From Rhizodiscina lignyota (Eukaryota), in contig ML978121.1 in the NCBI GenBank assembly GCA_010015805.1, positions 1,488,001 through 1,552,000 on the forward strand: a DNA stretch of 64,000 bases, in the 5' to 3' direction. Of this stretch, positions 9,890 to 11,512 are shown one piece after another; position 1 is the stretch's first letter; the number at the start of each line of letters is the position of its first letter. A program made the translations under genes and the position numbers. The notes beneath the pieces were generated by a model. It worked only from the letters and a program-made list of their open reading frames with translations, did not search any database and was not told the origin of the DNA.

Positions 9890-10806
9890 TAATGATATCG
9901 TTGTTGACTTGGGAGATCACCCCTCCGTGCCGATATACGTCTCGCTCAGTGACAACAACACGTTTGATGCAGTGATGCGCAATCCCACTGCAATTGCTGA
10001 TCAACTGGGCTTATGGAAGTCTGGCAAGGGCATCCTTGTCGATCCTCCGGCGTCAACGATAGGGTTTTTGCGCCTCTCTAAGGACAGCTAGGTCTTGAAG
10101 CAATTCGGAGATCCATCGTGTGGTCCTACGTGACCTCACACAGAGATGATATTTGTGGATGGATTTGTGCCTTTTGGGAGTATCCCACCATCAGAAAAAC
10201 GAGACATATATGGCACTATTGGCGGCAGTTGTTAGCCCAATGTCCAGTAAGGCTATATCACCTATCCCTGAGTGGCATTGAGCTGCTGACAATATCTTCA
10301 AGCCGGTTCTGTTCACATATATACCACCGATCCATCCGAGCAGCCGCTCATAGACCCAGCTTGGCTAGGGTCCGAATTCGATCAGCAGCTTGCATTGGAG
10401 ACTATCCGGAACGCCGTGACTTTAGTGACTTCTTCCCCACTCGACAGCTTCACCATTGGGCCTTTTGGGGATTTTGCTACCGCGCTGGCCGCAGAAACTG
10501 ACGAGGCTTTGCTGTCGTACATGCGTTCCCAAGGGACAACGATTTGGCATGCATTTTCGAATACGCGCATGAGTCCGTATGGTACTGATTACGGTGTCGT
10601 CAATCCCGACTTCGCGGTGAAGGGTATCAAAGGGTTGAGGATCCTTGATGCCGGCGTTTTCGTGAGTCTTGCTTATTCGTATTTAAATCTCGTTAGCTGA
10701 CTGGACATAGCCGACGCTTCCCACATGCCATCCGATGGGCGTTGTATGGGTTTTTGCTGAGCGCGCAGCAGATTTGATTAAACGAAAGTACGGTAACGAT
10801 CCTTAA
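9890..10806 (+). pseudogene. GMC oxidoreductase (aryl-alcohol oxidase/AA3_2-like), C-terminal half only, pseudogene
   Basis: Motifs DHP, DPSCGPT*PHTEMIF, AVVSPMS|TGSV...PLIDPAWL, TIWH..., GVVNPDFAVKGIKGLRILDAGVF|PTLPTCHPMGVVWVFAERAADLIK. In-frame stops at 10089 and 10131, a frameshift near 10195-10199, and no GxGxxG N-terminal FAD domain upstream. Confidence 0.85.
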
Positions 10807-11137
10807 AGAGCGCGGACTAAGGACCTATAGTCGGAGAAGCAAACCATACATAACTATTTCGTCTGGGTTGATCCGACATAAAGTCCTGTTGAACAACACT
10901 GCTAATGCTCAAAAGTCCTCAACGAGCATCTCTAAGCATTTTCTTTCCTCTTTTATTTGCTGGGAACTCGGGTGTTATGCGACCAAAGGACGTTCTGCTA
11001 AAGAATCAATCAGTTATGGTGACTAAAATCCACCGCGACACTGGACAGATATTTAGGGAGACGACGGGCGTAACTATCAGTGTGTGGTGCTATTTTTCAT
11101 GATGACTATATAATTAAAGTAAGTTTTCCTTACCATC

Positions 11138-11334
11138 GCCTTCGGGCATCGTGGGGTAATCGGTACAGAGATTAAACTGAAAAGAACGGGTACGGTTAAC
11201 ATGTTGCAGGGCGGTTCGATCCCCGAAGGGATCAAAATACTAACATTTAGGCGCTCAGTAACGGACAGCACCTTCTCGTGGTACTGGGTGTGAGTAATCT
11301 TAAAGATGAAACTAAGACTGTCCATTATTTTTTT
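11138..11334 (+). ncRNA. Candidate Pol III-type structured ncRNA with a U6-like 5' end and a U2 snRNA-complementary tract
   Basis: TATATAATTAAA at 11107-11118 (-31); GCC-TTCG-GGC hairpin 11138-11147; A box TGGGGTAATCGG 11152-11163; ACAGAGA 11165-11171; B box GGTTCGATCCC 11213-11223; GATCCC-CGAA-GGGATC hairpin 11218-11233; TACTAAC..TAG 11238-11250; GGACAG/CTGTCC stem 11263-11268/11318-11323; T7 and T8 runs at 11328 and 11339. Confidence 0.55.
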
Positions 11335-11346
11335 GGCCTTTTTTTT
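11328..11346 (+). terminator. Putative RNA polymerase III terminator (T7-GGCC-T8)
   Basis: Two oligo-T runs immediately after the 3' stem of the candidate ncRNA. Confidence 0.5.
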
Positions 11347-11512
11347 AAAATTTTCTATCCAGCTGTTAAGTGGTAGAGGCCCACTACGAGTCTCTCTTCG
11401 AAAACTACTATCATCAGCATGTCAAGCCTTTTTTTTCTTTTCTATCTAGCTGTCAAGTGGTAGAGGCCCACCACGAGTCTCTCTTCAAAAAATACTGTCA
11501 TCAGCATGTCGA
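11336..11512. repeat. Direct tandem duplication with an 87-bp period; differences are mostly transitions
   Basis: TTCTATC(C/T)AGCTGT(T/C)AAGTGGTAGAGGCCCAC(T/C)ACGAGTCTCTCTTC(G/A)AAAA.TACT(A/G)TCATCAGCATGTC(A/G)A. TAGAGGCCCAC occurs at 11374 and 11461. Confidence 0.9.

Follow-up and report, generated by a model that had tools for sequence, protein, structure and literature searches.

Candidate intron-mimicking antisense RNAs against U2 snRNA in the genome of Rhizodiscina lignyota

The question raised by this locus is what spliceosomal intron signals of near-perfect sequence are doing in DNA where no coding exons flank them. The locus lies within 64,000 nucleotides of Rhizodiscina lignyota contig ML978121.1 (hereafter the window, meaning the whole stretch that was analysed). 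The original prediction recognised a branch site TACTAAC at 11238-11244 followed by TAG at 11248-11250, and two candidate donors, GTAAGT at 11119 and GTACGG at 11190, which would define introns of 132 and 61 nt; additionally, CTTACC at 11129-11134 was proposed to imitate the 5' end of U1 and to fold back on the first donor. All of these letters, and both intron lengths, were found in place, and TACTAAC occurs once on each strand of the window. The extended helix that had been suggested between the branch region and U2 is also feasible, as inspection against the genome's own U2 gives pairing over 11237-11247/8 with A11243 bulged.

Promoter anatomy and genomic copies

The locus is a small gene with predicted Pol III-type anatomy and belongs to a multicopy family dispersed in the R. 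lignyota genome, which was searched over its 33.4 Mb (33 contigs). The general direction of the original prediction, a Pol III-type non-coding gene with conserved intron signals, thus appears to have been right, and the features that go beyond it are a 28-bp anti-U2 element, a mini-intron at 11163-11209, an HDV-like ribozyme and the multicopy nature of the gene. Within the window, Rfam gave no match at gathering score and ARAGORN no tRNA gene; by E-value, 10900-11500 gave only four weak Rfam matches, including the HDV-like drz-agam-1 at E 6.7. The predicted features are the following.

11107-11113, + strand: TATA element, similar in sequence and in its spacing to the head to that of the genome's U6 gene
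11138-11149, + strand: U6-like 5' head, a small hairpin
11152-11163, + strand: A-box-like sequence, weak by itself (57 matches to the loose consensus in the window)
11163-11168, + strand: family-wide 5' splice-site position, with the weak form GTACAG in the window copy
11166-11193, + strand: antisense element to U2 snRNA nt 36-63, with 26 Watson-Crick and 2 G-U pairs
11190-11195, + strand: second, subfamily-specific donor GTACGG, overlapping the end of the anti-U2 element
11195-11209, + strand: first branch-like hexamer GTTAAC (A 11199) and CAG acceptor (11207-11209), the 3' end of a 47-nt mini-intron
11210-11222, + strand: B box (11213-11222), the single occurrence of the consensus on both strands of the window together, overlapping a second, weaker U2-pairing segment (U2 nt 25-35)
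11238-11250, + strand: second branch site TACTAAC (A 11243) and TAG acceptor, the signals flagged originally
11253-11323, + strand: HDV-like self-cleaving ribozyme of the fungal variant type, predicted from covariation
11328-11346, + strand: two T runs (7 and 8 T), predicted from the sequence as Pol III terminators

On one side the locus is flanked by a fragment of a GMC oxidoreductase (PF05199, E 5e-21, 10290-10697, + strand), and on the other by short open frames without Pfam match. The fragment is C-terminal and, with short frames from 9768 onwards, looks like a broken gene just upstream of the element. Right behind the terminator, a direct duplication of about 75 nt (11351-11429 and 11440-11510) can be seen by inspection.

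The order of TATA, A box, B box and T-run terminator is that of a U6 gene. Because the genome's U6 gene has the same 31-nt spacing from TATA to head and the same first 12 nt, we infer that transcription starts at about 11138. An 18-nt pattern of the TATA region had 11 matches genome-wide versus 0 for the control; a 10-nt sequence of the head was found in 10 of 13 ribozyme-bearing copies, and a run of at least 4 T lies downstream in 23 of 24 copies examined. With this start, GTAAGT at 11119 and CTTACC at 11129 fall in a spacer predicted to be untranscribed. Among the ribozyme-bearing copies, GTAAGT precedes the head in 1 of 13 and CTTACC is kept in 2 of 13; since both motifs are rare among the copies and lie upstream of the predicted start, the 132-nt intron and the U1-like fold-back found no support.

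The locus thus shares with the fungal U6 gene its TATA region, first 12 nt, A box, B box and T-run terminator, but it has no U6 body, and it would pair with U2 nt 36-63 instead of forming the U2/U6 helices. A U6 paralogue was rejected, there being no RF00026 match at the locus (ACAGAGA box context, AGC triad, internal stem-loop), and a tRNA fold was rejected as well. The U6 of Schizosaccharomyces pombe reportedly bears an intron with its B box between the donor and the branch/acceptor, which is the arrangement seen here and the parallel that had been drawn; however, the single U6 gene of R. lignyota (the only U6 match genome-wide) is intronless, so the B-box intron was not inherited from U6.

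A genome search with 11050-11360 returned 14 matches at 13 places, and their alignment revealed similarity from the TATA region to the T runs. When the anti-U2 core was traced genome-wide, 25 copies were identified, which we grouped into subfamilies A (13 copies, with the ribozyme), B (6, with a tRNA-like head), C (4, with a U6 head and the second acceptor absent) and E (2 others); all of them come from this one genome. A core pattern had 38 genome matches, namely 8 U2 genes, 24 elements (one copy, L011, escapes the pattern) and 6 sequences without the anatomy, and the reversed control pattern had 21. Heads and tails differ among the four subfamilies, while the donor, the anti-U2 core, the branch and the YAG are kept, and promoters of U6 type, tRNA-like type and U2 type have been exchanged around this kept core. 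The U2-type promoter is that of L013 (C9:865948-866130), where it replaces the U6-type head; the complement of this copy fits U2 variants carrying T53G slightly better. The B box is located downstream in some copies. In L009, L010 and L011, a fragment resembling a tRNA variable loop and T arm (by inspection) just after the ribozyme provides a B box where the internal one has decayed.

Dispersed short sequences of this kind could be a selfish or neutral repeat, one put together from U6, tRNA, inverted U2 and ribozyme sequences and spread by duplication and gene conversion without any effect on U2, an explanation that we consider quite unlikely. It is consistent with the scattered copies, among which there are 7 near-identical young ones, degenerate ones (L011, L012 and L069) and a tandem pair in L045, and also with the lack of any relative found outside this genome. 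The latter result comes from one metagenome scan, in a collection thin in fungi, with one anti-U2-plus-branch pattern: 12 matches were obtained, about 11 being expected by chance on a rough estimate, and by inspection none of the 12 combined TATA, head, acceptor and ribozyme. On the other hand, target-site duplications were absent from 13 copies, the mean longest repeat being 6.7 nt versus 6.5 nt in mismatched pairs, and the TATA element, which lies outside the predicted transcript, was kept or swapped for another snRNA promoter. Similarity begins upstream of the transcription start, in the shared TATA region, and some pairs of copies share further upstream or downstream flank.

SINEs and ribozyme-bearing non-autonomous repeats are likewise short and dispersed, with an internal Pol III promoter and heads derived from small RNA genes. 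The locus differs from SINEs in the absent target-site duplications, the conserved upstream TATA, the flanks shared between some copies and the lack of a visible LINE-like tail, and a classic SINE was rejected on these grounds. As judged from the sequences, there appears to be selection on expression and on the core.

The anti-U2 element and the family-wide mini-intron

The most conspicuous part of the core is the antisense element. Segment 11166-11193 and nt 36-63 of the genome's own U2 (numbering anchored on G33 of the branch-recognition sequence) form a duplex of 28 uninterrupted pairs, which covers the 3' half of the branch-recognition sequence and the 5' strand and loop of stem IIa. The next best U2-pairing stretch in the window has 18 pairs, and 100 dinucleotide-shuffled U2 sequences gave 16-22 pairs, with none reaching 28. 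Directly after the mini-intron acceptor, the complement resumes at U2 nt 27-35: in 13 of the 25 copies, at least 8 positions of this 9-nt segment can pair, to a large extent through G-U (chance 0.002 per 9-mer). In the window copy, where it doubles as the B box, 5 of 9 positions pair without a bulge. By its complementarity, the RNA can therefore span approximately nt 27-63 of U2 if the branch and acceptor form a loop. Opposite U2 nt 41-49, all changes away from Watson-Crick pairing are G-U (2 distinct changes in 9 copies), and opposite nt 50-52 three distinct changes, in up to 7 copies, break the pairing; the copies being related, these counts overstate independence. Far fewer bases pair with U2 in subfamilies B, C and E than in the window copy.

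The targeted part of U2 is heavily modified, and a long complement to it would also suit an RNA that acts as a guide or chaperone of U2, either as a scaRNA-like modification guide or as a U4-like store of inactive U2 in biogenesis or recycling. U4 snRNA and the scaRNA guides are indeed small RNAs with long complementarity to another snRNA and are able to hold it unfolded. Besides this likeness, the snRNA-type promoters and a CTGA inside the element in 17 of 25 copies agree with such a role; however, the CTGA belongs to the U2 complement and is missing from the remaining 8, and no box C was found in the 120 nt examined in any of the 25 copies, on which account a box C/D guide was rejected. As for H/ACA, the loose H-box pattern matches everything, and no Rfam family was matched at gathering score, the four weak E-value matches aside. 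Folding energies of the whole RNA, in a model that leaves out pseudoknots, are ordinary (z -0.72 for 11136-11252, no better than shuffles, and 0.25). Moreover, a housekeeping guide would be expected to be single-copy and conserved across fungi, whereas the locus is multicopy and fast-evolving, and its splice signals and ribozyme would be left unexplained. We therefore regard a guide or chaperone as very improbable.

The second part of the core is a set of intron signals. Just before the anti-U2 element, a hexamer of the form GT-R-N-G is present in 18 of 18 diverged copies, in six different versions (6.7% at random positions), and the 7 young copies, that of the window included, have weak donor forms. 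Every one of the 25 copies has a YAG and all but one a branch-like hexamer, and the intron length is 44-52 nt in 24 of 25 (random 0.04%). Hence the donor, branch and YAG of a U2-type intron are conserved at workable spacing over 11163-11209. A survey of branch-to-acceptor distances in the window gave 7 candidates, too few to use. Identity between families is 0.70 in the mini-intron, as compared with 0.50 and 0.47 in the 40 nt flanking it on either side. Neither the six consensus-fitting donors at one position nor the changes that preserve pairing as G-U would be expected of a neutral repeat.

The motifs that had been pointed out in this locus are real, but the family-wide intron is 11163-11209 and not 11190-11250. 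For the latter, the branch and acceptor are conserved in the ribozyme-bearing copies (RCTAAC in 11 of 13, AG in 13 of 13), whereas its donor GTACGG is found in 7 of 13, all belonging to one near-identical young subfamily; the other ribozyme-bearing copies have ATACGG (4), GCACGG (1) or GTCTCC (1) at this position. Outside family A, the second branch and acceptor are present in 5 of 6 copies of B and in 0 of 6 of C and E.

Taken at face value, these signals would mean that the Pol III transcript of the locus is spliced and that its anti-U2 segment promotes removal of 11163-11209 or 11190-11250 by bringing U2 snRNP to an RNA without a cap, the spliced RNA or a stable lariat being the functional product. 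The conserved donor, branch and YAG at intron-like spacing are in line with this, and so is the fact that the pairing prolongs the natural branch helix. In the subfamily of the window, splicing of 11190-11250 combined with ribozyme cleavage would yield a 54-nt RNA with 24 nt of U2 complement. Nevertheless, the exons are unconserved between subfamilies, with the flanking identities given above, and therefore no common spliced product is to be expected; the anti-U2 element would be intronic in 18 copies and mostly exonic in the other 7 if the donor at 11190 is used; and the pairing crosses stem IIa, which the spliceosome needs intact according to the accessible text of PMC8516221. We consider a functional spliced RNA unlikely. 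A joint from 11187 to 11268, with a 23-nt side, was seen in one contig of one sequencing run and was interpreted as an artefact of the repeats; at the locus, contigs of the same run also show variant letters that belong to other copies.

The conservation of the mini-intron as the best-kept part, behind several different heads, could also be expected of a mobile spliceosomal intron that clamps U2 in order to stay in the intron-lariat spliceosome and reverse-splices into other RNAs. However, none of the 38 core-pattern matches is an intron inside an unrelated gene, and the U2 complement runs on into the next exon, so that this explanation seems far-fetched to us.

A predicted HDV-like ribozyme behind the second acceptor

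The sequence downstream of the second acceptor can be drawn as a nested double pseudoknot with the following parts.

5' of 11253, + strand: predicted cut, 2 nt past the AG flagged originally and 9 nt past branch A11243
11253-59/11283-89, + strand: P1 of the ribozyme model
11263-68/11318-23, + strand: P2 of the ribozyme model
11269, + strand: extra C between P2 and P3, present in all 14 rows
11270-72/11280-82, + strand: P3 of the ribozyme model
11275/11290, + strand: P1.1 of the ribozyme model
11293-96/11308-10, + strand: loop E, AGTA/GAA in the window and most copies
11297-301/11303-07, + strand: P4 of the ribozyme model
11312, + strand: predicted catalytic C in J4/2, C in 13 of 14 rows and T in L011

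The alignment comprised 14 copies (13 distinct), namely the 13 full elements and the head-less L017; the head-less L018, which is degenerate, was left out. In this structure, 97.6% of 286 cells are paired, and 5 of 22 pairs have changed on both sides. Only 0-1 of 500 shuffles reach the observed value on four of five measures and 43 of 500 on the fifth, and slid controls are 35-40% paired; the structure was drawn from the same sequences and P2 is invariant, so that its support comes from P1 and P4. The assignment of the catalytic C presumably follows HDV numbering. At the cleavage site, the pair in the chosen register is G-U in 13 of 13 distinct rows, and one base outward, copies with a C at 11252 could form a C-G pair. 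The compensatory changes in the ribozyme speak against a neutral repeat.

According to the accessible text of Li and Breaker (2017, PMC5640933), fungal HDV variants were shown to cleave and are distinguished by an extra C between P2 and P3, a loop E in P4 and, at the cleavage site, a C-G pair. The ribozyme shares with them the nested double pseudoknot, the extra C, the loop E replacing part of P4 and the occurrence of several copies per genome, and on its covariation it is a member of this published type. It differs in the pair at the cleavage site, which in our model is G-U unless the cut lies 1 nt further 5'. Furthermore, the accessible text of PMC5640933 describes "widely variable gene associations" and mentions neither a Pol III unit upstream nor splice signals or a complement to U2, a comparison that rests on its descriptions, since its 230 ribozyme examples may include such loci. 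By analogy with these tested homologues, we infer that the RNA of the locus cleaves itself.

It follows that the stable spliced RNA of about 135 nt that had been proposed is unlikely: its 3' exon is the predicted ribozyme, and the cut just past the acceptor would leave pieces of about 54 and 80 nt. The ribozyme is carried by 13 of the 25 anti-U2 copies. Two fungal-type HDV ribozymes occur without an anti-U2 unit, one at L017:1628-1710, with compensatory changes in P1 and P4, and one at L018:1665-1755, which looks degenerate; both have long ORFs beside them. Of four extra matches to a 13-mer of the ribozyme, two (L015 and L016) were attributed to chance and dropped. A general ribozyme pattern had 4 matches in viral contigs, none with an anti-U2 element in the 200 nt upstream. 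HDV-like motifs found behind tRNA-like sequences are known from theta ribozymes. In two viral contigs (L041:401-450 and L044:401-450), an HDV-like motif lies right behind tRNA-like sequences.

Capture of U2 and the expansion of U2 genes

The reading that we favour, at a probability of roughly 55%, is that the RNAs of this family are intron-mimicking antisense RNAs that capture U2 snRNP. According to the promoter anatomy, Pol III would start near 11138 and stop at the T runs, giving an RNA of about 200 nt directed at the best-conserved part of U2. Cutting 5' of 11253, the ribozyme would then leave a 115-nt product that starts with the U6-like hairpin and ends in a 2',3'-cyclic phosphate. The donor and the branch/acceptor signals would pull this RNA into spliceosome assembly, and once U2 opens for branch reading, the antisense element would lengthen the duplex to take in U2 nt 36-63, and 27-35 as well in many copies. 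With such pairing, U2 could form neither its branch-interacting stem-loop nor stems IIa and IIc, on which the spliceosome depends one after another (PMC8516221, accessible text). The U2 snRNP would thereby be held in a dead-end complex, and the second branch site, with 9 nt left after the cut, would stall the spliceosome before Prp2 acts. The net effect would be a sequence-specific sink for canonical U2. Trapping of U2 snRNP, which had been suggested as one function of the intron, thus becomes the leading idea, but the strongest U2 contact is the upstream 28-bp antisense element and not the branch helix.

Stable yeast introns are known to titrate spliceosomes. A short 3' tail after the branch and a proposed sequestration are common to the present locus, to those introns and to truncated pre-mRNA stalled at Bact (PMC4285774, accessible text); in comparison with that pre-mRNA, the tail would here be made by a ribozyme in a dedicated gene and the U2 pairing would be hyper-extended. 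In yeast, as stated in the same accessible text, a stretch of about 25 nt behind the branch A is required for Prp2, and tails of 5-6 nt stall at Bact. After the cut, 53 nt would still follow the first branch A, so the Prp2 argument is limited to the second branch; splicing at the first could either release a U2-paired lariat or destroy the inhibitor, which would make it a switch. The accessible text of PMC8516221 indicates that stem IIa is kept from the 17S U2 snRNP to Bact, excludes stem IIc and is protein-protected in the snRNP, and because of this protection the invasion of U2 may fail. Counting for the sink are the 28-bp duplex beyond all shuffles, the core kept in four subfamilies, the G-U changes, a second anti-U2 family and the U2 gene expansion; counting against it are the weak family-wide donor of the window copy, its second U2 segment at 5 of 9 and the presence of the ribozyme in only 13 of 25 copies.

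The second Pol III-type family was found via the TATA search and has 11 matches (L057-L067, e.g. C8:1390929-1391199). In 7 of the 11, a branch site with a bulged A lies inside a near-perfect complement of U2 from about nt 15 to 43, so that the target is on the other side of the branch helix from that of the first family. A bulged-A complement is not expected from plain inversion, which bears against the repeat explanation. In 10 of the 11, a short segment similar to U4 stem I is able to pair with the U6 region bound by U4, and the family also has a long conserved hairpin at the 3' end and a hairpin containing a donor-like hexamer.

U2 itself has 17 matches in the genome, 15 of them over the Rfam cut-off, as compared with 1 for U6 and 2 plus a fragment for U4. 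Differences from the canonical copy in nt 27-66 were found in 11 of the 15 U2 genes, several with compensatory changes in stem IIa. Five of them form a clade with a rewritten branch-recognition sequence (C24:136764, C6:1596496, C6:1619154, C6:1672302 and C6:1635451; L026-L030), four lying within 80 kb on C6; stem-loop potential is retained, stem IIa is fully compensated in four, and promoter-like flanks and Sm-like sites can be recognised by inspection. A sixth U2 gene, at C6:1601015, carries a different change. A stretch of 1.6 kb at C17:255277-256820 (L031 and L098) contains a U4 fragment together with two U2 sequences that are fragments or pseudogenes. Pairing of the window segment is predicted at -47.8 kcal/mol for 4 canonical U2 genes; it is weaker for the variant clade of five (-34 to -39), and lies at -42 to -44 for three further genes and at -45.9 for another variant.

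These observations suggest a larger picture, which we put forward tentatively and hold to be possible but doubtful: an RNA-only anti-spliceosome, in which two Pol III families clamp U2 on either side of the branch helix, one of them being a ribozyme-armed dead-end substrate, and in which the 15 U2 genes, with their rewritten clade, would stand for escape (or orthogonal splicing) in an arms race or a developmental switch. The purpose of the first family might be that of a splicing brake or switch, or that of a poison in a genetic conflict that drives the expansion and divergence of the U2 genes. Variant U2s as escape partners do not make a tidy story, as neither an antisense partner nor an enriched branch motif was found for them. 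A genome search for antisense RNAs against the variant U2s gave 8 matches, which were 3 variant U2 genes and 5 unrelated sequences, and their predicted branch 10-mer was not enriched (27 matches versus 27 for the control; 2 of 27 intron-like), without a matching intron class. Pairing of the variant U2s with the donor region of the elements was weak and without a consistent site, and was rejected. In a classic poison-antidote pair the two genes are tightly linked, which is not the case for the anti-U2 genes and the U2 variants.

In the literature covered, which includes subscription journals to a limited extent, neither a multicopy anti-U2 RNA or such a composite nor a fungal U2 clade with a changed branch-recognition sequence was found. 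We know of no natural gene whose RNA inhibits a core spliceosomal snRNA by antisense pairing, and the composite appears to be categorically new, its ribozyme being of a known type. Engineered orthogonal U2 systems have been described (PMC13019295, accessible text), of which the variant U2s would be natural counterparts. If the RNAs of this family are made and bind U2, they would add a new way of controlling splicing globally or a new form of genetic conflict; they would also offer a possible role for some orphan fungal HDV ribozymes and a reason for the diversification of snRNA genes.
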